The translations under genes and the position numbers were made by a program. The notes under the pieces are model-generated. The model made no database searches, was not told the DNA's origin, and saw nothing but the letters and a program-made list of their open reading frames with translations. Of a stretch of DNA of 64,000 nt, positions 7,320 through 60,359 are shown one piece after another. The stretch lies in the sequence record NC_054908.1; one strand, 5' to 3'. The stretch comes from Escherichia phage vB_EcoM_DalCa. Positions within the stretch are counted from its first letter, which is position 1. Each line of letters starts with the position of its first letter.

Positions 7320-7333
7320 TCTTTGACGATTTA

Positions 7334-7366
7334 AGGGACCTTCGGGTCCCTTTAGTTGTTTTTATG
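7334..7366 (+). terminator. Rho-independent terminator after gene 23
   Basis: AGGGACC-ttcg-GGTCCCT followed by a T-rich run. Confidence 0.7.
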
Positions 7367-7367
7367 G

Positions 7368-7375
7368 TATAAATA
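7368..7375 (+). promoter_or_regulatory. Late promoter box TATAAATA for gene 24
   Basis: Exact TATAAATA between the gene 23 terminator and gene 24. Confidence 0.6.
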
Positions 7376-7402
7376 AATCATATAAACTGAAAGGAAAGCG
7401 CA

Positions 7403-8871: not shown

Positions 8872-9720
8872 TCAAAAATCCTTCGGACCAATTTCACCAA
8901 TTTTAGAAATAACGTTATTTACTCGGTTCAGTGTAACGTAGCAAGCTAAAATTCCCACCAATTTGTTATCAGCTTCTGATAGTTCAACTTTAGCTTTAAT
9001 AGGCTTATCAGACTTTTTCTTTTCACTAAATTTGGAATTCTTGCATTTGATGGCTACACGATTTCCATTATGAAGCCAAGAAGGACAACAAGGTTTCAAT
9101 ACATATCCTTCAGCGGTAAATACTTCGCCTTTGGCTTCAGCTTTCCAAACACATTTGTTAGCGTCAACTAATCCTGCATGGTCTACTGTAAAATTATAAT
9201 CTTGGACGACAGAATCTAAATCATTTGGCAATTTAATAAGCTCTTCAAATTTACCGCGACCTAAAAGTGGAGCCATTTTAAATTTAAATGTATTACAAAA
9301 TGATTCCATCATATAATCATCGACATAAGTCACATCACCACTTTCTGTAGTGACAATAATGTCAAATACATAAAAATCTTTATCGCCATAATCGACATTC
9401 TTCTGAATGCCAGGTCCAGCGAATTCGCCAAAGACTTGATAAGATACAACCGCTGAGGTTTCCATAATATCTTGTACTGCTTTAATAGAATCTTCGTAAT
9501 TCTTTAGAATAATTTCATACCCAAAGAAATCTTCAGCAGGAAGAATTGGTCCAGTACGTTTAGCGCAAGTTACTTTATCACGCTCAATAATCAATGAGAA
9601 ATTTGTGCCGTGAATCTTTTCACGAGCTACCCACTCCCCACCAGTCAATCCCAAGCTATAAAGTTTTTCAATAAATTTAGAGTTGTAATGATTTTCAAGA
9701 CTGCTATACTTTTTAAACAT
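8872..9720 (-). CDS. rnlB: RNA ligase 2 (Rnl2), N-terminal 282 codons ending at an in-frame TGA
   Basis: Motif I lysine at residue 35 (EKIHGTN); position downstream of gene 24 region; ORF stops at TGA 8872-8874. Confidence 0.85.
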
Positions 9721-10299: not shown

Positions 10300-11715
10300 T
10301 TATGGATAGGTATAGATGATACCAGTTTCTAAAGCAGTTTTATGAATGATGTATCCATTACGCGATTCTTGGACATCAACTTCTGGATAGTCTTTAATCA
10401 TCTTCTGAAGAGTGTAACGATGCAGGTAGTATTTACTATCTGGGTCGTCAGTTTTCCAATCTTTACCTTCTTCGGTCATTTTTTGGATTTCATCCATAAC
10501 CCACCAACCGCACCAGATATAAGCTGAAGTACGATGTGGAAGAGGATGAACATAAGGTAGTTCACCTTCTGGTTCAATTGGAGTCCGTTCAGCAATAACA
10601 ACTTCAGCTGTTGAACTAATTGTCTTTGAAGTGTAATTATCTTTAGTTAATACTGCTTCAACTTTAATTGTATGAGTACCCGCTGAGGAGGTATCAATAC
10701 TATAAGTATTAGTAGAATTACTTTCTGCTACGTTGTCTTTCTTCCAAGAGTACACAATATTAGTATCACCAGGAGCACCAGTAACAGATGCTGTTAAAGT
10801 TGCAGTTCCACCAACAGTAGTATTAACTGATGGCGGAGATAAAGAAATGGTGGCACTATTAAATGTCGCATTATTAGTTACTACTGTTGCTTCTGCTGAA
10901 ATTTCTTTTGTAACATAATTTGTTGCAGAAACAGATGCGGTGCATTTAAGAGTTTTACTTCCGACTTCGGTCGGAGTGAATTTATACGTAGCAGAAGTTG
11001 CATCCGGAATATTACTGTCATCCATTGACCATTGGAATGTTATAGTAGCACCTGAAGGTGCACTAGAGACATTTGCAGTTAAAGTAATAGGAACACCAAA
11101 GACTGTAGTCGGAGACTCGGGTGTAATTTTTAGCGTCGAAGAATTAGCCTTTTTATTTACAGTCAAAGAAACCGCTGATGATTCTACTGTTTTATCAACG
11201 TAATCAGTTGCAGTCACTGTGACAGAGCAAGTTATAGACTTAGTTCCTTCAGTTGTTGGTGTATATTCAAAGGTTGATTGCTTTTGACCGTCAACATCGA
11301 CCCCGTCAACTTTCCATGTATAATCAATAGCAGCACCAATAGGTTGATTGCTTACATTAGCAGTGAATGTTGTTGCTGTTCCAATTTCTACTGCCGCAGG
11401 AGAAGCCGGAGTAACAGTGATAGTGGAATTATTTTCTTTCTTATTAACAGTGATAGTTGTTGATGCTTCAGCTATTTCCGGATCTCCTGCGGAAAGTGTA
11501 TTAGTTGCAACCACTTTAATTTTTTTTGTTCCTGCTGGAGAAGCAAGAGTATAATCCATTGTAGCAGCCGTAGAGCCCTGTGTTATATCATCTACAGTCC
11601 AGACGTATGTAATAGTACCGTCTGGGGTTTCACCTGCAGGTGTAGCAGTGAATGTTTGTGAACCTCCAATAACCCCTGTAGGAGTTAGAGGAGATAACGT
11701 GACAGTGAATGCCAT
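10300..11715 (-). CDS. hoc: Highly immunogenic outer capsid protein Hoc, four tandem Ig-like repeats plus C-terminal domain
   Basis: 471 aa; repeated ~95 aa units with T.TA...I.Y.W..D pattern; W-rich C-terminal domain; position next to inh. Confidence 0.85.
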   Translation of the reverse strand: MAFTVTLSPLTPTGVIGGSQTFTATPAGETPDGTITYVWTVDDITQGSTAATMDYTLASPAGTKKIKVVATNTLSAGDPEIAEASTTITVNKKENNSTITVTPASPAAVEIGTATTFTANVSNQPIGAAIDYTWKVDGVDVDGQKQSTFEYTPTTEGTKSITCSVTVTATDYVDKTVESSAVSLTVNKKANSSTLKITPESPTTVFGVPITLTANVSSAPSGATITFQWSMDDSNIPDATSATYKFTPTEVGSKTLKCTASVSATNYVTKEISAEATVVTNNATFNSATISLSPPSVNTTVGGTATLTASVTGAPGDTNIVYSWKKDNVAESNSTNTYSIDTSSAGTHTIKVEAVLTKDNYTSKTISSTAEVVIAERTPIEPEGELPYVHPLPHRTSAYIWCGWWVMDEIQKMTEEGKDWKTDDPDSKYYLHRYTLQKMIKDYPEVDVQESRNGYIIHKTALETGIIYTYP

Positions 11716-11724
11716 AAGTTATCC

Positions 11725-12405
11725 TTATTTTAATGTTATGAAAGAAGAATTACGAGTTTCGCGAATTAGAACTGATCCATCGCGATTAATATAATAAATT
11801 AAGCTAAATAATGTTTGGTGTGCTGACGCATGTTCAAAACTAGTTGGGTGAGATTTCCAATCCGGAGTTTCAGCAATCCATTGATAAATCCACCAAGGAA
11901 CAGTGCAGAATCCTGGATTTTTTCCAATCAGTTGAAGATTCGGACTAAAGTTTTCCGGAAGAGTAAATACAGACGGCTTTTCAGATTCAATAATCTCAGC
12001 TACAGCTTGTTCAAACTTTTCTTCAACAAACGGAGTGTCTTCAATCAAAACTGAGGTATTTTCAGGAATTTTATCCGTTTCTACTACTTCAATTTTAATG
12101 TCAGATTTAACCGGAGAATCAATCAAAAGTGCTGCTTCTGGATTGACTTCTTCATCGTCATATTTTAATCCCTCTGCGGCATCAGCAGCATCAATTAAGT
12201 CTTTAATAGATAACCCATCAGTCTCCGGCATAGGTTCACTAGCGAGCTTCTGGAGGGCTTCTTCAATATCAACAACGATATTATCAAAAGATTTATTCTT
12301 TTTGACCTTTATACCAAACTGTTCAGCATATTCAGCTAATTTAGCTTTAGCTTCTTTGTTATCATCAAGAGCCTTCAGCTCTGCAATATAATCTTTATCT
12401 ATCAT
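11725..12405 (-). CDS. inh: Inh, inhibitor of prohead protease gp21
   Basis: 226 aa, same length as T4 Inh; between hoc and uvsW. Confidence 0.75.
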   Translation of the reverse strand: MIDKDYIAELKALDDNKEAKAKLAEYAEQFGIKVKKNKSFDNIVVDIEEALQKLASEPMPETDGLSIKDLIDAADAAEGLKYDDEEVNPEAALLIDSPVKSDIKIEVVETDKIPENTSVLIEDTPFVEEKFEQAVAEIIESEKPSVFTLPENFSPNLQLIGKNPGFCTVPWWIYQWIAETPDWKSHPTSFEHASAHQTLFSLIYYINRDGSVLIRETRNSSFITLK

Positions 12406-12418
12406 AATATTTCCTCAG

Positions 12419-12426
12419 TATAAATA
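12419..12426 (+). promoter_or_regulatory. Late promoter box TATAAATA for uvsW
   Basis: Exact TATAAATA 30 bp upstream of the uvsW ATG in the divergent inh/uvsW spacer. Confidence 0.55.
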
Positions 12427-12455
12427 TAGATATATTTATTACATGGTATTTAGAC

Positions 12456-13967
12456 ATGACTGACATTAAAGTACATTTTTATGATTTTAGTCACGTGAGA
12501 ATTGATTGTGAAGAAAGTACATTTCATGAACTCCGTGATTTCTTTAGCTTTGAAGCTGATGGGTATCGTTTTAATCCGAAGTACAGATATGGCCACTGGG
12601 ATGGACGAATCCGTCTGTTAGATTATAATCGTCTTCTTCCATTCGGCTTAGTCGGGCAAATTAAAAAGTTCTGCGATAACTTTGGCTATAAAGCCTGGAT
12701 TGACCCACAGATTAACGAAAAAGAAGAATTATCAAGAAAAGATTTTGATGAATGGCTTTCTAAATTAGAAATCTATTCAGGAAATAAAAGAATTGAACCA
12801 CATTGGTATCAAAAAGATGCAGTGTTCGAAGGATTAGTTAATCGTCGTAGAATTCTTAATCTTCCAACATCCGCAGGTAAATCTTTAATTCAAGCTCTGC
12901 TTGCTCGGTATTATTTGGAAAATTATGAAGGCAAAATTCTTATTATTGTTCCAACAACTGCTCTGACAACTCAGATGGCTGATGACTTTGTTGACTATCG
13001 TTTATTCAGTCATGCAATGATAAAGAAAATCGGTGGTGGAGCATCAAAAGATGATAAATATAAAAATGATGCACCAGTCGTTGTTGGTACATGGCAAACT
13101 GTAGTAAAACAACCGAAAGAATGGTTCTCACAGTTTGGAATGATGATGAATGATGAATGCCATCTTGCTACAGGAAAAAGTATTTCATCTATCATATCAG
13201 GTTTAAATAACTGCATGTTCAAATTTGGTCTATCTGGTTCATTACGTGATGGCAAAGCCAATATCATGCAGTATGTTGGAATGTTTGGTGAAATATTTAA
13301 GCCAGTAACGACTTCTAAGTTAATGGAAGATGGACAAGTAACTGAGCTAAAAATTAATAGTATTTTTCTTCGCTATCCCGATGAGTTCACTACTAAATTA
13401 AAGGGAAAAACTTATCAAGAAGAAATAAAAATTATTACGGGGCTTAGTAAAAGAAATAAATGGATCGCTAAATTGGCTATTAAGCTTGCACAAAAAGATG
13501 AAAACGCTTTTGTCATGTTTAAACATGTATCACATGGTAAAGCTATTTTCGATTTAATTAAAAATGAATACGATAAAGTTTATTACGTATCAGGGGAAGT
13601 TGATACCGAAACCCGCAACGTAATGAAAACCTTAGCTGAAAATGGTAAAGGAATAATTATAGTAGCTAGTTATGGTGTATTTTCTACTGGTATTTCAGTT
13701 AAAAATCTGCATCACGTTGTTTTAGCGCACGGTGTTAAATCAAAAATCATTGTATTACAAACAATCGGTCGTGTATTACGTAAGCATGGTTCTAAAACAA
13801 TCGCAACAGTCTGGGACCTCATAGATGACTGTGGTGTCAAGCCAAAATCTGCTAATACTAAAAAGAAATATGTTCACTTGAACTATCTTTTAAAACACGG
13901 CATTGATCGTATTCAGCGCTACGCAGATGAAAAATTTAATTACGTAATGAAAACAGTTAATTTATAA
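12456..13967 (+). CDS. uvsW: UvsW DNA/RNA helicase
   Basis: 503 aa; Walker A-like PTSAGKS, DECH box; TATAAATA about 30 bp upstream. Confidence 0.9.
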   Translation: MTDIKVHFYDFSHVRIDCEESTFHELRDFFSFEADGYRFNPKYRYGHWDGRIRLLDYNRLLPFGLVGQIKKFCDNFGYKAWIDPQINEKEELSRKDFDEWLSKLEIYSGNKRIEPHWYQKDAVFEGLVNRRRILNLPTSAGKSLIQALLARYYLENYEGKILIIVPTTALTTQMADDFVDYRLFSHAMIKKIGGGASKDDKYKNDAPVVVGTWQTVVKQPKEWFSQFGMMMNDECHLATGKSISSIISGLNNCMFKFGLSGSLRDGKANIMQYVGMFGEIFKPVTTSKLMEDGQVTELKINSIFLRYPDEFTTKLKGKTYQEEIKIITGLSKRNKWIAKLAIKLAQKDENAFVMFKHVSHGKAIFDLIKNEYDKVYYVSGEVDTETRNVMKTLAENGKGIIIVASYGVFSTGISVKNLHHVVLAHGVKSKIIVLQTIGRVLRKHGSKTIATVWDLIDDCGVKPKSANTKKKYVHLNYLLKHGIDRIQRYADEKFNYVMKTVNL

Positions 13968-22873: not shown

Positions 22874-24931
22874 CTACATTTTGAACTTTTTAGACATTCC
22901 GTTAATGTTAACCAAAGAAGCTAAGATTTGAGAAACTTCATTTTCCTCTTCTTTTGATTCTTCTACAAGGAATTGATTAAATCCAGCCATTGGACGAACT
23001 TCACCAGTTTCCATTAGATGGTCTCCATCATATACTGATTCTTCTAATTGTTCAGAAGGAGGAACGATTGTACCTTCGATTAGATACTTGTTATAAGCAG
23101 TTTCTTTCATAAAGTACGTACTTACTTTATTAATCTTCAGTAAAATTCCACGTGGTAGAATAACTTCAGCTTCTGATGGAAATCCTGATAAATGACCCGG
23201 AACGATAACTTTGATTCGCTCAGCTCCTTTAATTACCATACCCACGCTAGTTTCAGCATCTTCATTAGCATATGTAGAATGACTACCCATATGCATCAAA
23301 TCTTCTGCATCAACAGAACCTTCTCCTTCGCCAGAAAATACTGCACCGGAATCATCTAGAGCCATATAGTTTTTACCATGCTCACCGAAGATATTTGGTT
23401 TAAGTGATGTCGATACGAAGTTCTTGAAATAGAACATTTTATTTTCAATATTGTGACGCAAAGTTTTAAAGGTAACTTCTTGTCCACGGTAAAGTGTAGT
23501 TCCTGGAGGAAGAACTGAACCTTTAGCGAATGCAGAATCCAGCGTCTCAATATGTTTAATAGCTCGTTCCATATATTCTTCACGGGTAGAATCTGGTTTA
23601 CCCAAAAGGAACGAGTTCATTTCAACATATGAATCTGCACAATAATCTTCAATTACGTCAGATTCAGCCTGAGTTAATCCTTTTGGAGTTACTTCAGTAC
23701 TTGCATATTCATATGCCTGAGCGGCAGATTCATTAATCAATTTATAAATGCCATTCATGACAAATTGAATAATAGCTGTCTTTTCATCTGGCGTAGCTTT
23801 AGAACCTTTAACTAAATCATTGACAATTTTCTTAATAACATCAAAACTATTAGAAATATTAATATCAGCAAGATCGCTTAAAATTTTATCAGTTTTATAA
23901 TCAAAGAATTCTTTATTCTTTAAATATTCTTGAGAACCTTGATATGTTATATCGCTCTGCAGCTTGATAGATGGATCGCGTAAACGTGCATGGGCCAATG
24001 CAATATGATTTCGGAAGTTTTCTAGTTCATAATCGTTAGATTTAAAACGAGAAGCACTTCTCATACCACCGATAGCTCCTTTGCTAAAGTTTGAACCAAT
24101 CTGAATAACGCCAGAGTTCATCGGACCTTCTGCTTTATATACCGGAACTTTAGATTCAAACTCTTGATATTTCTTGGCAGCAAAGCTATCACCCTGAAGT
24201 GAAGCATCAACAGTAGAATATTGAGCTTGTGCTGCTAATCGACGACTTATTTTAGTTTTCTGAATAACAGCTTGGTCCGTGCGCTTATCATTTTCTAAAG
24301 CAATAGAAGCAGCAACAGCGACAGCTTTAGGAACAGCATTTCCTGTTTTAACGTCTACATAAACATCACCGACCTTTGATTCAACTTTTGTGAATAACTC
24401 AGTTGAAATAGGAGGTACACCTGGAATGTCTTCTAAATTGGCATTTTTACGGTAAACCATAATATATGCATATTTCTTATCATAGTCCCAGATTTCCTTT
24501 AAAAGAACATATCGACCTGCTCCTTTAGTACGTACTAAACGGTCAGCAATAACTTGCATTTGACGAGCTGCGCCATTTGTTTTACTTTTTAGTACGCGGA
24601 ATAGGCATGCGTCGATTTTATACTGTTTCATTGTTTGAAGAGCAGTATCAAAAACGGCATTAATGACACCAATTGGATTTCCACCCAAGTTTCTAAGTTT
24701 AACCAGTGATAGTTTCTCATTAACACCTATCATTACGATATGCATCATTTTATCGCCTGGCTTAACGTTTTTATTCGTATCACCACCAGAGGTGTATGTA
24801 CAAAATCTAAATCCAGGAAGCACGCTTTCTTCGCCGGCTTGAATAGCAAAAATTTGTGGTATTTTATGCTTAGGATTTAAGTTAACAACCGGCGCCGAAG
24901 CGCCGTCAAATAATTCTGTAATAAGTTCCAT
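22874..24931 (-). CDS. Alt-like mono-ADP-ribosyltransferase paralogue (685 aa)
   Basis: N-terminus MELITELFD... near-identical to the neighbouring Alt; R-S-E motifs (TLYRGQ, FVSTSL, EAEVILPRG). Confidence 0.8.
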   Translation of the reverse strand: MELITELFDGASAPVVNLNPKHKIPQIFAIQAGEESVLPGFRFCTYTSGGDTNKNVKPGDKMMHIVMIGVNEKLSLVKLRNLGGNPIGVINAVFDTALQTMKQYKIDACLFRVLKSKTNGAARQMQVIADRLVRTKGAGRYVLLKEIWDYDKKYAYIMVYRKNANLEDIPGVPPISTELFTKVESKVGDVYVDVKTGNAVPKAVAVAASIALENDKRTDQAVIQKTKISRRLAAQAQYSTVDASLQGDSFAAKKYQEFESKVPVYKAEGPMNSGVIQIGSNFSKGAIGGMRSASRFKSNDYELENFRNHIALAHARLRDPSIKLQSDITYQGSQEYLKNKEFFDYKTDKILSDLADINISNSFDVIKKIVNDLVKGSKATPDEKTAIIQFVMNGIYKLINESAAQAYEYASTEVTPKGLTQAESDVIEDYCADSYVEMNSFLLGKPDSTREEYMERAIKHIETLDSAFAKGSVLPPGTTLYRGQEVTFKTLRHNIENKMFYFKNFVSTSLKPNIFGEHGKNYMALDDSGAVFSGEGEGSVDAEDLMHMGSHSTYANEDAETSVGMVIKGAERIKVIVPGHLSGFPSEAEVILPRGILLKINKVSTYFMKETAYNKYLIEGTIVPPSEQLEESVYDGDHLMETGEVRPMAGFNQFLVEESKEEENEVSQILASLVNINGMSKKFKM

Positions 24932-24934
24932 GAT

Positions 24935-26992
24935 TTATCCTTGAACGAACTTGTAAGGCATGTTTGCAATATCTATACAAGACGCAATAATTCCAAGAGA
25001 TGATTCTACTTTCTGTTTAACATTTGATGAAACAAATGATGCAAAGTCAACTCTGTCTTCTACTTCAATATCACCTGTCATTGCAACCAATTCACCAGTT
25101 TCCATTAAATGGTCTCCGTCATAGATTACCGATTCGGTGAGCTCTTCCGTGGTCATAACTTCAGCTTGAATAAGCTTGTTGTTAGTTTTAACTGTTCCAT
25201 CATTGTAAGATGCATCAGTTATTTTATTAACTTTGACCATTAATCCACGTGGCAAAATAACTTCCATTTCATTTGAAGGCGCTAAACTTCCACCGGGTAA
25301 AACAACATTGACTTTATCAGCCCCAGTAATAACCCATCCAATTCCGACTAAATTATCGCTAGAATTAACAAGCCCTTCATCATTTTTATCGATAGAAATG
25401 TTTAGACGCTTTTCATCTGGTAAAACACCAACAGCTGAATCAGTCATCCAAGTACCAAAAATGTTTGGATATAATGATGTTGATACAAAATTTCTAAAAT
25501 AAAAAACTCGATTTTTTACCAATGCTTCATATATTGAAGGTAACATTCGCTGTGAACGATATAAAGTAATACCTTTTGGCAATCGATCACCATTTTTAAA
25601 GGCTGAATCTAAATTATCAATAGCTTTTTCTATGTCAGATGCTGTCAAAATACTTGTACGCTCATCTGGATTATATAATCCCAAAAGAGCATTATTTATG
25701 TCTACATATCCTGAACCTACGTATTCACGAATTCCGCGTTTTTGTGCTGGTGTGTATTTAGATGAATCTTTATTTTCGACTATAGGATGTAATGACCATC
25801 CAGCTGTAAGAGCATATCCACGTAATTCTCTTCGAATAATCTTTGTTTTTATTGCATTCCAAGAATTTTGTACTAACTCATTTGCAGCATCTTGGTTTAA
25901 ATGCGAATGTTTGTTAATATTTCTTTCAAACCAAGCACCTTTATATTTTTCTAAAGTATCATCGACGATAGAAGCAATAGTTTCTAAAGTTTTTATTGAA
26001 GTAATAGATTCTTTTCGTAATTTTTCTAAAGCTTTATTTTTTATTTCTGCATTAATAATGGATTCTTTATCTTCAGGAATTATAGAAGCTTCTCTGAATG
26101 CCATCCCAGCTGTAACACTGCTAAGAGCATTCTCTAGTGCAAATCCTGAAGTAGAAATTACCGTTAATTCATTAGAATCAGAAATTAAAGGCGCGTCCGC
26201 TGGTTTATTTAATTCTGCCGCTGAAGCCTCAAATTTTTGAAACATCGGTGTTTCAAATCTAGAAGATTCCAATGACTGACTTTGTGCAATTGCTCTACGG
26301 GAAATTTTAACTTTAACGATTACAGCTTGGTCAGAACGTTTATCATTTTCTTGTGCAATAGATGCTGCAATTGCCTCATTTTTGGTTACTTGAGCTCCGG
26401 TATCTTTATTGATATAAACATCACCGACCTTCGATTCAACTTTAGTAAAGAGCTCGGTACTAATTTCCGGAACTCCTGGAATGTCTTCTAGTGATACATT
26501 TTTGCGATGTATAAGAATATATGCATACTTTTTATCATAATCCCAGAGTTCCTTAAGAAGGACGTATCTGCCACCTGAACGACTACGGATAAGTCTATCA
26601 GCAATAACTTGAATTTGTCGAGCTTGACCAGCGGTTTTAGACTTAAGAATACGAAGCATACAAGCATCAATTTTATACTGACGCATTGTTTGCATTGCAA
26701 CAGTAAAAACTGAATTGATATAATTAATTGGGCTTGGACCAAGACCTTTTAATTTAGCAATTGAACCTTTAGCAGTTAATGTAAAAGGAACAATATGCAT
26801 CATTTTATCGCCCATTTTTAAATCGCGATTAGTATCACCTCCAGATGTATAGGTACATAAACGAAAGCCTGGTTGTTCAATTGCATCATCAACATGAACT
26901 GAAAAAATTTGCGGTATTTTCTTCTTTGGATTTAAGTTTGTAATCGGAAGAGTAGTATCTTCGTCAAATAATTCTGTAATAAGTTCCATCAT
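24935..26992 (-). CDS. alt: Alt ADP-ribosyltransferase (685 aa)
   Basis: N-terminal packaging-type sequence MMELITELFDEDTT...; R-S-E motifs (TLYRSQ, FVSTSL, EMEVILPRG); adjacent to gene 30. Confidence 0.8.
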   Translation of the reverse strand: MMELITELFDEDTTLPITNLNPKKKIPQIFSVHVDDAIEQPGFRLCTYTSGGDTNRDLKMGDKMMHIVPFTLTAKGSIAKLKGLGPSPINYINSVFTVAMQTMRQYKIDACMLRILKSKTAGQARQIQVIADRLIRSRSGGRYVLLKELWDYDKKYAYILIHRKNVSLEDIPGVPEISTELFTKVESKVGDVYINKDTGAQVTKNEAIAASIAQENDKRSDQAVIVKVKISRRAIAQSQSLESSRFETPMFQKFEASAAELNKPADAPLISDSNELTVISTSGFALENALSSVTAGMAFREASIIPEDKESIINAEIKNKALEKLRKESITSIKTLETIASIVDDTLEKYKGAWFERNINKHSHLNQDAANELVQNSWNAIKTKIIRRELRGYALTAGWSLHPIVENKDSSKYTPAQKRGIREYVGSGYVDINNALLGLYNPDERTSILTASDIEKAIDNLDSAFKNGDRLPKGITLYRSQRMLPSIYEALVKNRVFYFRNFVSTSLYPNIFGTWMTDSAVGVLPDEKRLNISIDKNDEGLVNSSDNLVGIGWVITGADKVNVVLPGGSLAPSNEMEVILPRGLMVKVNKITDASYNDGTVKTNNKLIQAEVMTTEELTESVIYDGDHLMETGELVAMTGDIEVEDRVDFASFVSSNVKQKVESSLGIIASCIDIANMPYKFVQG

Positions 26993-34531: not shown

Positions 34532-34764
34532 AGTACGCCATACACCCTTTGTGCTTCAACTAATCCATCAAAATCCAATTTGAGATGTGTTATTTGGTCA
34601 CCATCACCTGGATTCACAATTACTAATACCGAACGAGGAGTTTCGGTAATAACACGAACCGACGTTTCAGGAAATCGTTCAGAAACCTTATTTACCAATT
34701 CTTGAGCAAATAGTTTAACTTTTTCTTGGAATTCTTTAACAGTAATTGGTTTTTCGCTTAGCAT
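34528..34764 (-). CDS. Hypothetical protein (cd.2 position)
   Basis: 78 aa ORF, coupled. Confidence 0.55.
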   Translation of the reverse strand: MLSEKPITVKEFQEKVKLFAQELVNKVSERFPETSVRVITETPRSVLVIVNPGDGDQITHLKLDFDGLVEAQRVYGVL

Positions 34765-35285
34765 GTTGATCCTAGCTCCTTACTTTCAACATTTTTAACT
34801 AATTTGACAGAAACTAATTCAGCATCTTGGGTAATCATTACCGGACCTTCTTCATGCTCTTCAAGATATTCTAGAGCTTTCTTTTTAGCTTCTTCCTTCG
34901 TATCAGTTTGAGCATAGATATAGAACATACAACCAGTAATACCTACTACTTTCCACTTAATTTCTTTATCAGTTTTAATTTCAAATTTACTTACAGAATC
35001 ATCTTTTTGAACTTCTTCGAAAAAAGAATATTCTAACATATAAGCAATTGAAAATAACGGGCTAACTTTATAGGATTCACCCATTACATCAACAGCTTTA
35101 TACCAACAATCATCAATTTCACGTTTAATGCTAATAACATTTTTCGCAGGATCTATTTTTACTTTAAATGAATTTTCCCCAATAAACTGGGCAATTCGTT
35201 TATTAGCCCCGCAAGTTTCATTAAAAATATCTTTATATCCAGCTTTAAAGCGATAAACCTTATCTTCTTCAAACCATTCGCTCAT
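34758..35285 (-). CDS. Hypothetical protein (cd.3 position)
   Basis: 175 aa ORF with early promoter-like element upstream. Confidence 0.6.
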   Translation of the reverse strand: MSEWFEEDKVYRFKAGYKDIFNETCGANKRIAQFIGENSFKVKIDPAKNVISIKREIDDCWYKAVDVMGESYKVSPLFSIAYMLEYSFFEEVQKDDSVSKFEIKTDKEIKWKVVGITGCMFYIYAQTDTKEEAKKKALEYLEEHEEGPVMITQDAELVSVKLVKNVESKELGSTC

Positions 35286-36016: not shown

Positions 36017-37216
<1,200 letters not shown>

Positions 37217-37220
<4 letters not shown>

Positions 37221-40266: not shown

Positions 40267-41445
40267 TTAAAAGTATTTTTTAAAACTCATCATAACTTTA
40301 TCATCAACATCATTATCAATCTGTGCAACAAGATAAGATGACAGTTCTACTTCTTGCGGCGCGGATTGAACATTATCAGAATTAAGGTATTCACGAATCC
40401 AAGGATATGGATGTTTAACCGGAGCATCGGTAATCGGGCATGGAAGACCACACTGTTTCATACGAGATACAGTTAAGTAATCAATAAAGCTCCACATGCT
40501 ATTTGTATTTAATCCAGGAACATCGCCATCTTTAAATAAATGAACTGCCCAATCTTTTTCTTGGCGGTTAACTTCCATGAAAATATCAACTGCTTCTTGT
40601 TCACACTCTTGAGCAATTTTAACCCATTGATCGCCATCAGTACCAGATTGAAGTTGACGAATAATATATTGTGTACCTTTAAGATGAAGCTGCTCATCAC
40701 GTGCAATGAACTTCATAATCTTGGCATTACCTTCCATGATTTCCATGTTTTTATGGAAGTTAAAGGTACACGCAAAGGATACATAAAAACGAATAGCTTC
40801 CAGAGCATTGATAACGTGCAGACAGAGATAAAGCGACTTCATCAGGTCTCGTTTACATTCTTCCAAATGAGTGAGACTGTTTGAATATGCTTCTAAATCA
40901 TATTCATTTTCAGCAAAATAACTAAAGTTTTCTTTGGCGTTTTCCCAAATACGTGTCTTGTCCAGAACATCATCATAATAACGACCAATAGATTCAGCAC
41001 GTTTCATGATAGCTTTATCTAATACAATCTCATCAAATACCTTTGACGGATCAGTATAAAGATTTCGCATAATATGAGTGTATGAACGACTGTGAATAGT
41101 TTCACTAAAAGTCCATGTAGCAACCCATGTATCAAGGCTTGGGTCTGAAATCAATGACATAAGTACAGCAGACGGTGCACGACCCTGAATGCTATCCAGA
41201 AGTGATTGATACTTCAGATTATTAGTAAAAATATTCTGCTGATATTGAGGAAGCTTATTAAACTGTGCAGCATCCATCATTAAGTTTACTTCTTCAGGAC
41301 GCCAGAAAAATGACAACTGCTTTTCGGTTAAATCTTCAAAAACTTTATGACGTTGAATATCATAACGCGCAATACCAAGACCTGAACCAAAAAACATAGG
41401 TTCTTTTAAAACATCAACTGGATTTGTATTAAAAACTGTGCTCAT
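40267..41445 (-). CDS. nrdB: Ribonucleotide reductase small subunit NrdB, uninterrupted
   Basis: 392 aa continuous ORF; di-iron ligand-like E..H motifs; order denA-nrdB-nrdA. Confidence 0.9.
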   Translation of the reverse strand: MSTVFNTNPVDVLKEPMFFGSGLGIARYDIQRHKVFEDLTEKQLSFFWRPEEVNLMMDAAQFNKLPQYQQNIFTNNLKYQSLLDSIQGRAPSAVLMSLISDPSLDTWVATWTFSETIHSRSYTHIMRNLYTDPSKVFDEIVLDKAIMKRAESIGRYYDDVLDKTRIWENAKENFSYFAENEYDLEAYSNSLTHLEECKRDLMKSLYLCLHVINALEAIRFYVSFACTFNFHKNMEIMEGNAKIMKFIARDEQLHLKGTQYIIRQLQSGTDGDQWVKIAQECEQEAVDIFMEVNRQEKDWAVHLFKDGDVPGLNTNSMWSFIDYLTVSRMKQCGLPCPITDAPVKHPYPWIREYLNSDNVQSAPQEVELSSYLVAQIDNDVDDKVMMSFKKYF

Positions 41446-41496
41446 AAATTTTCCGCTTAGTTAATAGTTGGTGACTCGTCCGTGAGTCAAATTATA

Positions 41497-44078: not shown

Positions 44079-44295
44079 ATTGTTTTTCCGTTAAAACAGT
44101 AATATCGTAGTAACAGTCAGAAGAAGTTTTAACTGTGGAAATTTTATTATCAAAATACTCACGAGTCATTTTATGAGTATAATATTTTTTGCCATAAATG
44201 ATAATAGGCTGATTTGGTCCTGGAACTTCTAGCTCACTTGGATTAGGAAGTGTAAAAAGAACAACGTCAGAAGTATCTTTAAATCGTAAAATCAT
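44032..44295 (-). CDS. Hypothetical small protein between td and nrdA
   Basis: 87 aa ORF overlapping the td stop by 4 nt. Confidence 0.5.
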
Positions 44296-45152
44296 ATTGC
44301 CATTTTCCCTTTAATTGCTGGATGCGATTCATAATTTTCAAGGATAAAATCTTTCGGTTTCATGTATTCAGTTAACCAGTAAAGCTGTGTTTCGGTGTCA
44401 CAATTTCCAAACTCTATAGGCCAATCAATTTTAAGTTCACATAGTTCTTTAGGCTCACGACGTAAAATTTCTTTACATTGCTCAGTATGATTCATATAGA
44501 TGTGAGTATTACCACCAGAAAATATCAAATCTCCTGGGATAAGATTACACATCTTAGCCACAATATGCGTCAAGGCAGCGTACGAGGCAATGTTGAATGG
44601 CAATCCCAAGAAAACATCTACACTTCTTTGGTACCATTGTAAATCAAGATAACCATTACGCACATTAAACTGATAGAACATATGACAGGGCGGTAATGCC
44701 ATTTGATTGATTTCAGCTGGATTCCATGCTGAAACGATTTGACGTCGATCAGTTGGTAATTTTTTAATACGATCAATAGTTTCAACTAATTGATCCACAC
44801 CGCCGAAATCACGCCATTGTTTACCGTATATAGGACCAAGTTCACCACTATGATATCCTAGGTCTTTAGCCTGGTTTTCATAGTTATCGTCCCAAATAGT
44901 TTTACCTTGAATAAGACTACCATGTGTGCGAAGACGTAAATCATTAACATTGGTAGAACCGGAAATAAACCATAGAAGCTCAGCAATGCATGCATTCCAC
45001 GCAAGCTTCTTAGTTGTTACCGCAGGAAAACCTTTAGTTAAATCCCAACGTAATTTAGTACCGAACAAAGCAATTGTTCCTGTGCCTGTTCGGTCATCGG
45101 TTTCATAGCCATTTTCAAAAATGTCTTTAATTAAATCTTGGTATTGTTTCAT
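44292..45152 (-). CDS. td: Thymidylate synthase, uninterrupted
   Basis: 286 aa continuous ORF; active-site region [10 protein letters not shown]. Confidence 0.95.
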
Positions 45153-45197: not shown

Positions 45198-45545
45198 TCA
45201 ATACGGTTTAGCATCAAATTTTCTCTCAATTTCAGGCGTGAAATATAATTCTTTACCGCGTTTGGAAAAGCGACCAATAATATGATAATTATTCTCATCA
45301 AACGTGATATTACCAATATCCATAGCTTTCAACCAAATATCGATATTTCTATCCAGCTTTATGTCAAAATTCCAATACGGTGAACTATTACCGAAAATAC
45401 TGCAAGCGGATTCAGTGAAACAACTGCTATAAATCTTGTCTTTAGGAACTACTAATTGATAGACACCTTTAATAAACTGAGGACCCTGCCACTTTGGCTG
45501 TTTCGTGTCTTTTTCTAATAGAATAGGGTAATAATTAAAATTCAT
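45198..45545 (-). CDS. Hypothetical protein located between frd and td
   Basis: 115 aa ORF flanked by short spacers; no recognisable nuclease motif. Confidence 0.6.
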   Translation of the reverse strand: MNFNYYPILLEKDTKQPKWQGPQFIKGVYQLVVPKDKIYSSCFTESACSIFGNSSPYWNFDIKLDRNIDIWLKAMDIGNITFDENNYHIIGRFSKRGKELYFTPEIERKFDAKPY

Positions 45546-45564: not shown

Positions 45565-46394
<830 letters not shown>

Positions 46395-47423: not shown

Positions 47424-47520
47424 ATTATTTTCCTCTTTAATCATCAGCAGTATTGCCGATAGTTGTATAGTACCATGGAAGGACAAGGATGTAAACCGTT
47501 TTGTGAAAAAATTTTTGAAA

Positions 47521-47545
47521 TAAAAAGGGGACCTCTAGGGTCCCC
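47521..47545 (-). terminator. Rho-independent terminator after gene 32
   Basis: GGGGACC-ctag-AGGTCCCC followed by TTTTTATTT on the minus strand. Confidence 0.7.
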
Positions 47546-47567
47546 AATTAATTAGTAATATAATCTA

Positions 47568-48476
47568 TTAAAGGTCATTCAAAAGGTCATCTAGGTCCGT
47601 GTCATCAGCACTAGATGAACTGCCAGAGCTTGAGCTCATAAAATCATCTTCAGTTTTTGTATTGAAGTCATCAACATTGAATGCATCCAAATCATCAGCA
47701 ACTTTATCAGCTTTCTTAGCAGCAGTTGCAGCAGCACCGCCCATCACAGCAGTTCCCATAACTTGACCGAATTTAGTGCTCAGTTCTTCAAACGATTTGA
47801 ATTTATCTTTAGAAGTCATTTCAGAAAGGTCAACCATTTGTTCGAACAGTTCTTTCTGGAAAGATTCATCGTCAATGTTTGGAATCGCAGATTGATTCAG
47901 GAATTTAGATTCGTCGTAGTTACTAAATCCAGAAACCTGTTTAACTTTCAGTACAAAGTTAGCACCTTCCCACGGACAAGTTACATCAACCGGAGTTTCA
48001 CCCATTTCAACATCAACTGCAATCATTGCGTTGATTTTATCCCAGATTTTCTTACCGAAACGGTATTTAAATACTTTACCTTCATTTTCTGGAGCAGCTG
48101 GGTCTTTTACTACAAGAATGTTAGCCCAGTAAGAAGTTTTACGTTTAACAAGACCGTACTCTTTATTGTCAGTGTTATACAAATCATTTTTACTGATGTA
48201 CTGACATACTGGACAAGAATCGTAATCACCGTGGGTAGATGAACAGTTTTCAATATACCATTTACCATTTTTCTTGAAACCGTGATTTACAAGAATTGCG
48301 AATGGTGCTTGTTCATCATTTTTAGACGGAAGAAAACGAATTACTGCTTGACCGTTACCCGCATTGTCGAGTTTCAGTTTCCACTCGCCTTTATCTTCAG
48401 AAGAAAAACCACCTTTATTTCCAGCCAGTTTAGCCATTTGTGCAGCGAGTTCAGCAGTAGATTTACGTTTAAACAT
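47568..48476 (-). CDS. 32: Single-stranded DNA-binding protein gp32
   Basis: 302 aa; acidic Ser/Asp-rich C-terminus; pseudoknot-like leader upstream; strong terminator downstream. Confidence 0.95.
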
Positions 48477-48508
48477 TTTTATTTCCTTTTTAATTTAATT
48501 AACAGTTG

Positions 48509-48543
48509 GTGCTATGACGATGTATGACCTCATAGCTGGTCAG
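48509..48543 (-). promoter_or_regulatory. Gene 32 mRNA leader pseudoknot-like element (translational operator)
   Basis: Minus strand UGACC-AGCUAUGA-GGUCA-uacaucg-UCAUAGC: two interleaved stems, followed by an A/U-rich stretch to the ATG. Confidence 0.55.
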
Positions 48544-48550
48544 TGAGGTA

Positions 48551-48576
48551 ATTATAATCTATTTATAATAAGCAAT
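48551..48576 (-). promoter_or_regulatory. Gene 32 promoter cluster (MotA-box-like ATTGCTTAT, TATAAATA and TATAAT)
   Basis: Minus strand reads ATTGCTTATTATAAATAGATTATAAT upstream of the gene 32 leader. Confidence 0.5.
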
Positions 48577-49229
48577 TAATACCTACAAGATTTCACAGTT
48601 TCAATGAAAACACTTTTAGCTTTCTGTGAATCAATATTTAAAATTTTTCTATAAGCCTTTAACTTTATAGAATAATTATTCCAGACTAAATTATCAGTCT
48701 GTTCATCATGTTTATCAATTATATTTAAAAACGAATCAAGCAAGATAAACGTTTCAAACGAAATTATATTCGATTGAAGTAGTTTAAAAATATAACTTGA
48801 TTGAACTTTTGGATTATACTCAAAGATTTCTTTAAAAGCAGAAACTTCAACTTTTTTACTAAAATAATAAATGTTGCGAATATCTTCTTCAAACTTAAAT
48901 TTAATTTGCTTTAAGCGTCCGATATATTCACGATAAAACACAAGTGCATCAGCGTCAGAGATGTCACCAATCCAAGCATCTTGGTTAGCTACAAGATTGC
49001 TAATAAAAATTAAAGTTAATTCTTTTAATTTATACTTTTCTGATAGCTTTTGGAAAAAATACTTATCCCTTCGCTTTTGATAAGCGGCATCAGACACCCG
49101 CATGCACCAATTATACTTAATTACATCATACTTTCCATTCATATGTTGTTTTATCATTAAGTATAATTTATAAACTGATTTACCATCAATGTATCTTTCA
49201 CCACCAGCAGGCATGCGGAGTTTAATCAT
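48576..49229 (-). CDS. 59: Helicase loader gp59
   Basis: 217 aa, same length as T4 gp59; order 59-32. Confidence 0.9.
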   Translation of the reverse strand: MIKLRMPAGGERYIDGKSVYKLYLMIKQHMNGKYDVIKYNWCMRVSDAAYQKRRDKYFFQKLSEKYKLKELTLIFISNLVANQDAWIGDISDADALVFYREYIGRLKQIKFKFEEDIRNIYYFSKKVEVSAFKEIFEYNPKVQSSYIFKLLQSNIISFETFILLDSFLNIIDKHDEQTDNLVWNNYSIKLKAYRKILNIDSQKAKSVFIETVKSCRY

Positions 49230-56556: not shown

Positions 56557-59523
56557 ATGGCTACTTTAAAACAAATACAATTTAAAAGAAGTAAAACTGC
56601 AGGTCAACGTCCTGCTGCTTCAGTATTAGCCGAAGGTGAATTGGCTATAAACTTAAAAGATAAAACAATTTTCACAAAAGATGACTCAGGTAGTGTTATA
56701 GAATTAGGTTTAAAATATGGAGGAACAATTGATGGTTCTTTAACTGTTAATGGAAACATAATTGGAAATTTAACAGGTAACGCTGCAACTGCAACGAAAT
56801 TAAAAACAGCACGAAAAATTAATGGTATATCCTTTGATGGGTCAAAAGATATCACGCTAACTCCATCTGACATAAATGTCAATAGCACAACGTTTATAAA
56901 AAATAACGGCGAATTACCTGTTGATGCTAATTTAGATGAGTATGGGCCTGTTGAAGAATATCTTGGAGTTTGGTCGAAAGCAACTTCAACCAACGCTCAA
57001 CCAGCAAATAAATTTCCAGAAGAAAATGCTGTAGGTGTTCTAGAAGTATTTGTGGCCGGTCAATTTGCTGGTACTCAGAGATATACAACTAGATACGGAA
57101 ATGTTTATATTCGTTCCTTGACTGCTACATGGAACGGAGTAAACGGTCCGTGGAGTGCGTGGCGAAATATTCAATCTGGTACTCGTCCACTGTCAACAAC
57201 GATTGATCTTAATGATCTAGGAGGCGCTGAACACCTTGGTTTGTGGCGAAATAGTTCAAATTCCATTGCTACCTTTGACAGAAATTTCCCAGAAGAAGGA
57301 TCGTCCGCTCAAGGACTTTTAGAAGTATATGAAGGTGGAAACTATTCTCGCACACAGAGATATACGACCAGATTTGGTGTTGTTTATACTCGTTGTCTTG
57401 CTGCTGCGTGGGATGCTTCTGCGCCTAAATGGGGACCTTGGCAACAAGTCGGTAATGTCACACCGGCGACTTTCTATGACGGAGATCTGAATGATTTTAA
57501 AACTCCTGGGTTATATAATATTTTAGGCACTGATGCCGTTATTAACTGTCCTACCGGTGAAGGTTTACCAGCCGTTATTGTTGGTTTGCTGGAAGTTAAA
57601 CAGCGTGCTTCTGGTGGTGCTATTTTCCAAAAATTTACTACTGCCGGAACGGGTGCAACTACTCGCGATCGTATTTTTGAGCGTGCATATACTGGTGGTG
57701 TGTGGGGTGCATGGAACGAAGTATATACATCTTATTCCCTGCCAATTACTTTGGGTATGGGTGGTATTAAAACTCAATTAGCGGAGTTAGATTGGCAAAC
57801 CTTTGATTTTGTCCCTGGTAGTATGTTTAGTGTTCCTTTGAACAAAATAAAGAATATGCCAGCAAATATGGATTGGGGCACGATTGATGGAAACCTGGTT
57901 ATGTTTTCCGTTGGTCCTAGCGAACACACTAGCACAGGACGTACTGTTCAGATTTGGCGCGGCACCGTATCCCAGACAAACTACCGTTATTTTGTCGTTC
58001 GTGTGTTCGGTAATTCTGGAAATAGAACTTGCACAGTTCGTCGTGTTGTTCTTGAAGACGGATCACATACTTGGACTGCTAAACAAGATTTTAATGGCGC
58101 AGTTAACTTTAACTCTACTGTTAACCTTAATAACACTACCACATTTAAAACAGAAGTTAAATTTCGCTCATTGAATGCATTCCGTATGTATGGCGGAAAA
58201 TTTGGTACATTTTTACGTAATGATGGAGAGAGTCTTTATATTCTTTCCACCGACGAAGATGATCAAGATGGAAACTTTAATACAAATAGACCTTTCCGTT
58301 ATGAATTAAGAACTGGTGATGTTACTTTGGGTGGTGCTAGTGGTGCTAACGTTTTAAAATTAAAACGTGATTCTCTCACCGCATTTTTTGGCGGTGATAT
58401 TAACATTAAAGGCATGATGACTTTTGACGCCGGACGTTTAGGATCACGAGATTATTTTAAATTTAACCATTGGGGTGATAGTAATAATGCGCGTGATAAC
58501 ATTATTCAGTTAGAAGACAGCAAAGGCGCTCATTTTTCCACTGAACGTACTTTAGCGACTGGTGCAATTAAGACTAAATTTTTTGGTGAAATTGAATCCG
58601 ATGGTAAATTGGTTATTAAACGTCCGGGTGATTCTATTGTATTATCAACAACTGCTAGTAATTCTTTGCATATTCGCGGTGATATAGACGGGACTGGTAA
58701 CTGGTATATTGGTAAAGGTGGTGCTGATAATGGATTAGCGTTCTATAGTTATGCTACTAATGCTGGTGTATACATTACAAACGCAGGAGATATCTCGCTA
58801 AGTCCAAAGGGTGCCGAAATGGCTCAGGTCAATAACGTTCGATTATATGTTCATGGTGAACGTTGGACCGCTAGTCAACCAGGTGATTGGGGCAGTCAGT
58901 GGCAAGTGGAAGCGCCAATATTCGTCGATCATGGTTATGTTGGACCAGATAGCTATTATCCAATTATTAAAGGAAGAAGTGTAATCACCAATCAAGGGTT
59001 TGTAACTGCCGTCGATCTTGGTATTCGTCGTGTCCCTAACAATTGGGGGCAAGCAATTATTCGTGTTGGATCTGCAGAGGCATCGCCAGCGGCTGGACAC
59101 CCTAACGCGGTATTTGAATTTCATTACGACGGTACTTTCTATTCTCCTGGTAATGGTAACTTTAACGATGTGTATATTCGTTCCGATGGTCGTCTTAAGA
59201 TTAATAAAAAAGAGCTAGAAAACGGAGCACTTGAAAAAGTATGCCGACTGAAAGTTTATACATACGATAAGGTTAAGTCTATTAAAGATCGTAGTGTTAT
59301 TAAACGTGAAGTTGGTATTATTGCTCAGGATCTTGAAAAAGAATTACCGGAAGCTGTGTCTAAAGTTGAAGTTGATGGATCTGATGTTCTGACAATTTCT
59401 AACTCCGCTGTGAATGCTCTTTTAATTAAGGCTATCCAAGAAATGAGCGAAGAAATTAAAGAATTAAAAACGCCTTTCTTCACTAAAATTGCTCGCAAAA
59501 TTAGTAAATATTTTAAATTCTAA
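56557..59523 (+). CDS. 37: Long tail fibre distal subunit gp37 with C-terminal self-cleaving chaperone-like domain
   Basis: 988 aa; N-terminus [19 protein letters not shown] typical of fibre proteins; SDGRLK motif about 113 aa from the C-terminus. Confidence 0.9.
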
Positions 59524-59529
59524 CAACAA

Positions 59530-59548
59530 GGGGGCAACGCCCCCTTTG
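59530..59548 (+). terminator. Hairpin after gene 37 (GGGGGC-aac-GCCCCC)
   Basis: 6 bp GC stem followed by TTTGG; just upstream of the gene 38 RBS. Confidence 0.5.
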
Positions 59549-59558
59549 GAGATAAATT

Positions 59559-60359
59559 ATGGCAGTAGTTGGTGTTCCTGGTTGGATTGGTAGTTCATCC
59601 GTAAATGAAACAGGACAACGATGGATGAGTCAAGCGGCTGGTCAATTAAGATTGGGTGTTCCTTGCTGGATGAGTCAATTTGCAGGTCGCTCACGAGAAA
59701 TTATTCATACACTTGGAGCAGACCATAACTTCAATGGTCAATGGTTCCGAGATAGATGTTTTGAGGCCGGTAGTGCACCTATAGTGTTTAATATTACAGG
59801 TGATTTAGTATCATATTCTAAAGATGTTCCTTTATTCTTCATGTACGGGGATACGCCTAATGAATATGTTGTTCTTAATATTCATGGTGGTGTTCATATG
59901 TGGGGTCGTGGTGGTAATGGTGGATACACTCACTCGGGAGGCGACGGTAACGGTACACAAGGCGGTCATGTTATTCAAAATGATATCGGTGGACGGCTTC
60001 GTATTTGGAACTACGGTGTTATAGCTGCTGGCGGTGGCGGCGGTGGTGGTATTGCATATCGTCCACACTCAGGGGCAAACTGGCAAGATATCGGTGGCGG
60101 TGGTGGTCGACCTTTCGGTGGCGCTGGCGGTGGCGGTTATTCCGGTGGTGCTGCTTCGTATGAAGGTCCGGGTGGTGGTTATGACTATGGTAACGCACAC
60201 TCCGGCGCAGGTGGTAATGCTGGTGCTGCTGGTCAGAATGCATGGTCTGACGGCGGTAAAGTTCTTAAAGTTGGTGTTGGTGGTGCGTCTGGTCATGCAG
60301 TGTTTGGGTCTTCTCCAACTTGGGGTGCTGTTGGAACAATTTACGGACCAAGAGTATAA
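59559..60359 (+). CDS. 38: Receptor-recognising adhesin gp38, T2-type with glycine-rich motifs
   Basis: 266 aa; several poly-Gly stretches (GGGGGGG, GGGGG, GGAGGGG) separated by variable segments. Confidence 0.85.

Follow-up and report, generated by a model that had tools for sequence, protein, structure and literature searches.

The 64-kb window (the whole stretch of DNA from Escherichia phage vB_EcoM_DalCa analysed here, 64,000 nucleotides) is a Tequatrovirus (T-even-type) segment extending from gene 18 to motA, and the three sites at which phage T4 carries segG, segE and segD are very probably represented in it by endonuclease-free alleles of a kind common among sequenced T-even-type phages. 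According to this explanation, these intergenic regions would have been colonised in phage T4 by segG, segE and segD, which are free-standing homing endonuclease genes of the GIY-YIG type, whereas in the window the spacers would hold no more than the regulatory signals normal for the genes downstream. Since seg genes are passed on horizontally by homing, near-identical genomes differ in whether they have them, and lacking them tells little about lineage. The coordinates of the features discussed below are given in Table 1.

For a 6-kb piece around the site between genes 32 and 59, matches covering at least 80% of it were obtained in 489 phage records. Among the top matches to the gene 32 region were the phages WilhelmHis/Bas35 and UTI-E2 (98.5% identity) and G4498 (97.1%). 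No single database record matched the whole window; the best relatives, at 96.5–98.5% identity, change by segment, which is the usual mosaic pattern.

Table 1. Positions of genes, spacers and signals in the 64-kb window, in order along the shown strand.
Feature	Position	Strand	Length	Remarks
Gene 23, end	7319
Spacer between genes 23 and 24	7320..7402		83 bp	Empty segD site
GC-rich hairpin GGGACCTTCGGGTCCC, then T's	7335-7350			In the 23–24 spacer, terminator-type
TATAAATA for gene 24	7368-7375	+
Gene 24, start	7403
rnlB (RNA ligase 2)	8872..9720	-		Stop at 8872-8874
hoc	10300..11715	-	471 aa
inh	11725..12405	-	226 aa
Spacer between inh and uvsW	12406..12455		50 bp	Empty segE site
TATAAATA for uvsW	12419-12426	+
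uvsW	12456..13967	+
alt, first copy	22874..24931	-	685 aa
alt, second copy	24935..26992	-	685 aa
Acidic ORF in the cd.2–cd.3 spacer	34758..35285	-	175 aa	Absent from T4 and T2
Coiled-coil-like ORF adjoining pseT	36918..37220	-	100 aa	PHROG 2364; not in T4
nrdB, intron-less	40267..41445	-		Position of the T4 nrdB intron (I-TevIII), 40769/40770
Spacer between nrdA and nrdB	41446..41496		51 bp	Empty mobE (and nrdB.1) site; T4 junction 41445/41501
td, intron-less	44292..45152	-		Exon junction of the T4 td intron (I-TevI), 44603/44604; blastn junction 44600/44605
I-TevI homing-site region of td	44573..44633	-
ORF between td and frd	45198..45545	-	115 aa	In T2, not in T4 (td and frd overlap there)
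ORF between frd and frd.1	46149..46394	-	81 aa	PHROG 3183; in T2, not in T4
Terminator-like hairpin GGGGACCCTAGAGGTCCCC, then T run	47527..47545	-		Downstream of gene 32
Gene 32, single-stranded DNA-binding protein	47568..48476	-	302 aa	T2-length allele, extra codon nt 64-66
Gene 32 nt 226-239, GAAAACTGTTCATC	48238..48251	-		Candidate SegG target/immunity position
Spacer between genes 59 and 32	48477..48575		99 bp	Empty segG site
Gene 32 mRNA pseudoknot (translational operator), complete	48511..48542	-		Read directly from the sequence, by comparison with PMC535899
TATAAATA for gene 32	48560-48567	-
Gene 59, helicase loader	48576..49229	-	217 aa
gp37–gp38 region	56557..60359	+		gp37, 988 aa

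Gene junctions at the seg sites

Mapping of the window against the T4 genome with blastn gave clean junctions at 7330/7391, 12442/12462 and 48539/48575. The flanking genes, their order and their orientation are the same as at the T4 seg loci, and the flanks are approximately 91–98% identical over kilobases. At these junctions T4 has inserts of 623 bp (SegG, 210 aa), 636 bp (SegE, 205 aa) and approximately 790 bp (SegD, 223 aa), where the window shows unrelated spacer sequence of 35, about 20 and about 60 bp, respectively; the 623-bp segG insert of T4 replaces positions 48540-48574 of the window. The T4 annotation (NC_000866) places segD at 106561..107232 between genes 23 and 24, segE at 112057..112674 between inh and uvsW, and segG at 147909..148541 between genes 32 and 59; a review (Edgell et al., PMC2988022) lists the same T4 positions in a table of seg insertion sites and targets.

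A preliminary description of this DNA had placed the three T4 genes near these positions, in agreement with the T4 annotation, and had reported that the 32–59 spacer (about 100 bp), the hoc–inh–uvsW region and the 23–24 spacer hold no extra ORFs. The 32–59, inh–uvsW and 23–24 spacers measure 99, 50 and 83 bp, respectively, and the ORF scan gave the same picture: the only ORFs of at least 20 aa reaching into them are antisense ones, mostly lying within gene 32 or gene 24, while hoc and inh are separated by 9 bp with no additional ORF between them (hoc–inh 10300..12405, minus strand). Since the spacers are 50–99 bp long, no gene of approximately 200 codons is possible there, and the statistical question is trivial. 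A free-standing GIY-YIG (seg) or HNH (mob) gene, with an ORF of about 140–260 aa, is thus missing at each of these T4 sites and likewise in the 51-bp spacer between nrdA and nrdB.

Regulatory signals in the spacers

Each of the three spacers contains exactly one copy of the T4 late-promoter consensus TATAAATA, pointing to the downstream gene. The pseudoknot preceding gene 32 consists of stem 1 (TGACC/GGTCA) and stem 2 (GCTATGA/TCATAGC); the Rfam search of the whole window matched no family, the gene 32 operator included. In phage T4, the 5' part of this pseudoknot overlaps the segG reading frame, which Borjac-Natour et al. (PMC535899) read as the insertion of segG into an operator that was already there, and the promoters of gene 32 are located inside segG (PMC2988022). 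In the window, unlike in T4, the TATAAATA copy serving gene 32 sits in the spacer itself.

Searches for homing endonucleases and introns

A tblastn search with all 15 homing endonucleases of T4 against the whole 64-kb window gave a best E-value of 0.3; the check with T4 Seg proteins that the preliminary description had proposed was thereby run over the 64 kb and found no homologue. GIY-YIG and HNH profile HMMs, compared with the 885 six-frame stop-to-stop peptides of the window, gave a best E-value of 0.08, and the same pipeline recovered 15 of the 15 homing endonuclease genes when applied to T4. A scan of the window for the GIY...YIG motif was also negative. These searches cover the 64 kb; seg or mob genes may lie elsewhere in the genome, for instance at the sites of segA, B, C, F or mobA-D.

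The stretches of the window that do not align to T4 are located inside long structural ORFs (hoc, alt, gp37 and gp38) or in small ORFs. The small ORFs absent from T4, as well as several poorly characterised neighbours, showed no match to a nuclease family in Pfam, PHROGs or NCBIfam. Altogether, six of the six T4 mobile elements belonging to this range (segG, segE, segD, mobE, the td intron and the nrdB intron) are absent.

Two of the vacant sites have peculiarities of their own. The nrdA–nrdB spacer holds an inverted repeat, TGACTC...GAGTCA. The I-TevI homing-site region of td differs from the intron-less T4 junction at 17 of 61 bases (T2 differs at 8), all the changes being synonymous, so that the 19-residue peptide encoded over the region is unchanged; the CNNNG-type motif is kept as CAAAG. 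Within the window, divergence is highest in the 44–46 kb bin, where td lies, with approximately 86% identity to T2 and to T4. Judging from these bases, the td allele may be resistant to I-TevI.

Possible susceptibility of the empty sites

In a cell also infected by a phage with a seg gene, an empty allele would be cut and then repaired from the donor, which would require both the endonuclease target sequence and homologous flanks in the empty allele. The three sites are unoccupied and colinear with the donor flanks, and the identity of these flanks (91–98%) is enough for double-strand-break repair; the flanks thus appear adequate at the three sites, and the candidate target allele for segG looks T2-like. 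The preliminary description had presented the phage as a recipient in T4 marker-exclusion crosses, a claim of which the segG part alone is plausible, nucleotide 230 of gene 32 being A as in T2; the segD part is doubtful, since segD reportedly does not home.

The gene 32 comparison included eight segG-carrying and seven segG-less genomes, and nucleotide 230 was the best column. It is C (Thr77) in 8/8 carriers, A in five of the seven segG-less genomes and C in the other two; the window (position 48247) has A, encoding Asn77, as T2 does. The association has a Fisher p-value of 0.007, uncorrected either for the approximately 50 columns that vary or for common descent among the 15 genomes, and no column in the alignment of these genomes is a fixed difference between carriers and non-carriers. 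Nucleotide 230 lies 329 nt from the stop of gene 59, close to the distance between SegG insertion and cleavage, which is reportedly 332 bp. The window also has the T2 allele at most of the nearby sites of gene 32 that discriminate T2 from T4 (246, 264, 276, 295, 297 and 322), but it is unlike T2 at nucleotides 231 and 234. Taken at the level of sequence, these features make susceptibility to SegG plausible.

As for segE, whose endonuclease has its target in the inh–uvsW/uvsW 5' region, the inh–uvsW junction is that of T2 and is at least 99% identical in 445 records, but SegE homing was shown with phages RB30 and RB52 (PMC2330249). As for segD, the title of the paper by Sokolov et al. states that this gene does not home, and it was argued to be barely transcribed (PMC2988022); the recipient status of the window for segD is doubtful.

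The sites might also be empty and immune, their targets having drifted or been selected to a point where the T4 endonucleases no longer cut. This explanation is unlikely. At gene 32, the two departures from T2 stand right beside position 230 and speak for immunity, but position 230 itself and most of the nearby discriminating sites have the T2 allele. The 17 synonymous changes in the I-TevI region of td, against 8 changes in T2, and the title on segD mentioned above agree with immunity as well, whereas the inh–uvsW junction, 100% identical to that of T2 and widespread among phage records, argues against it. A further argument against immunity is that GIY-YIG endonucleases tolerate many substitutions; degeneracy is described for SegB (PMC2330249).

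The phage could be used as a natural recipient in homing tests for segG or segE, which would be of modest practical value, and the association of Asn77 and Thr77 with genomes lacking and carrying segG, respectively, offers a cheap testable guess at the determinant of SegG immunity.

Absence of seg genes and the T2 lineage

The absence of segG, segE and segD had also been proposed in the preliminary description as a mark of a T2-like lineage, and this claim was not borne out, even though the spacers and the gene content are T2-like. Phage T2 (AP018813; T2L in publications on marker exclusion) has spacers of the same three lengths, with the same late-promoter consensus, pseudoknot and hairpin, and the window differs from it by two mismatches in the 23–24 spacer, none in the inh–uvsW spacer and one in the 32–59 spacer. 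The 201-bp inh–uvsW junction is identical to that of T2, and the second T2 record, PV958097, also shows 100% identity. The alignment with T2 continues through each of the six T4 homing endonuclease gene or intron sites, and T2, like the window, is without mobE, the td intron and the nrdB intron. At the indel loci the gene content of the window is of the T2 type, including two full-length alt genes, the td–frd and frd–frd.1 ORFs and an adhesin-type gp38.

At the level of bases, in contrast, the window is equally far from both phages: its identity over 54,003 shared columns amounts to 95.07% for T4 and 94.99% for T2. Of the 2113 columns that discriminate T2 from T4, it has the T2 base in 967 and the T4 base in 1008, T2-like and T4-like stretches alternating along its length. 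The gene 32 of T2 differs from that of the window at 27 positions, among them nucleotides 231 and 234, and gp37 and gp38 of the window have only a remote relationship to the T2 proteins. By identity, the 64 kb compared do not fall into the species Tequatrovirus T2, the best matches (gee4498-type phages among them) belonging to other species and reaching only 96.5–98.5%; the usual species threshold is approximately 95% genome-wide nucleotide identity. The alignment to T4 and T2 that had been suggested as a check, made here for the window only, therefore supports colinearity with T2 and T2-like gene content and gives a base identity that is not specific to T2.

The distribution of the alleles among sequenced phages also speaks against a lineage marker. 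Counts made with short junction queries, unable to bridge an insert, revealed uninterrupted junctions in 355 of 498 matching phage records for the 32–59 site, in 445 of 605 for inh–uvsW and in 586 of 655 for 23–24 (71–89%). The phage records holding a protein with 95% or higher identity to SegG, SegE or SegD number 141, 159 and 54, respectively. The two counts are independent and agree, so at all three sites the empty allele prevails. At the same time, phages approximately 98% identical to the window carry segG, namely CHD94UKE2, which belongs to the same species as the best matches, and PYps35T. With the empty state in the majority and segG present in close relatives, the absence of the three seg genes is not a lineage marker, and the likeness of spacers and extra genes to T2 notwithstanding, it is improbable that their lack assigns the phage analysed here to a T2-like lineage. 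The data from the 64 kb lean towards a placement outside the T2 clade or in a clade mixing seg-plus and seg-minus genomes, and they warn that the absence of homing endonuclease genes is unsuitable for marking lineages.

An improbable loss of seg genes

Cycles of gain, decay and loss are expected of homing endonuclease genes in general. It is nevertheless quite improbable that the seg genes were once present here and were lost by precise deletion: the I-TevIII gene and mobA of T4 are indeed decayed copies, but neither the tblastn nor the HMM searches found a seg-derived remnant in the window, the 35 bp at 48540-48574 contain a functional-looking late promoter and equal the T2 sequence except for one base, and the T4 segG frame, extending over the 5' part of the pseudoknot, was read as an insertion into an older operator (PMC535899). 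In view of the missing remnants, secondary loss was rejected as the main reading.

The ORF between td and frd and other loci

The 115-aa ORF between td and frd belongs to a family of 17 representative clusters, nearly all of approximately 100–120 aa and none fused to a nuclease domain. Its invariant residues are Q16, W19, G27, G91, K95 and G97, and the family has no conserved acidic or histidine residue. No sequence match was found in Pfam, NCBIfam or PDB; the predicted model is confident and beta-rich, with a weak OB-like similarity and without a clear structural relative. The counterpart in phage WilhelmHis is labelled "putative homing endonuclease", a label for which no support was obtained, as no nuclease features were found. 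That the ORF is a homing endonuclease after all and the window not endonuclease-free, as this label and the insertion between two genes overlapping in T4 might suggest, is highly improbable given the family features above. There is just as slight a chance that it is an unrecognised free-standing selfish insertion or the DNA-binding partner of one, in which case a mobile element would be present even in this "endonuclease-free" segment.

Several other loci distinguish the window from T4, T2 or both. Codon 283 of the 334 in rnlB is an in-frame TGA instead of the GGA of T4 and T2, which truncates the C-terminal domain; the remaining 51 codons, a tail extending to approximately 8719, are 98% conserved at the protein level, and the TGA reflects either a nonsense mutation of recent origin or an error in sequencing. 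The two alt paralogues are tandem and full-length, as in T2, while the alt region of T4 has one alt and the short remnants alt.-1 and alt.-2. The acidic ORF between cd.2 and cd.3 matches PHROG 3710 (unknown function) and is weakly similar to the FRD2-like PHROG 622; it shows no nuclease signature.

The capsid decoration protein Hoc is longer than that of T4 (376 aa), and the centre of the gene (approximately 10575-11378) cannot be aligned to T4 or T2, which suggests, from the sequence, an extra or exchanged domain. The distal tail fibre protein gp37 matches its T4 and T2 counterparts only in the 66 N-terminal residues, with a C-terminus weakly similar to T2, and gp38, of the T2-type adhesin class, is 49% identical to its T2 counterpart and has no match to that of T4; the receptor-binding module differs from that of either phage.

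Comparison with other T-even-type phages

The endonuclease-free alleles described here are ordinary, already known and well-documented biology. Beyond annotation their meaning is small: the window adds common endonuclease-free alleles at three well-studied T4 sites, together with those of mobE, td and nrdB. Homing endonuclease genes are patchy even among the closest T-even relatives (Petrov et al. 2010), and the window fits this pattern. The gee4498-type Tequatrovirus phages (WilhelmHis/Bas35, vB_EcoM_G4498 and UTI-E2) are among the nearest to its gene 32 region. Annotation was checked for WilhelmHis and G4498, and both show the same empty site of approximately 99 bp between genes 32 and 59 and the same ORF between td and frd. 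In contrast, the phages CHD94UKE2, G3F7 and G3F10, members of the same species-level group as the gee4498-type phages, carry segG. Among sequenced T-even-type phages, T4 is an endonuclease-rich outlier, and the empty state found in the window is the common one.
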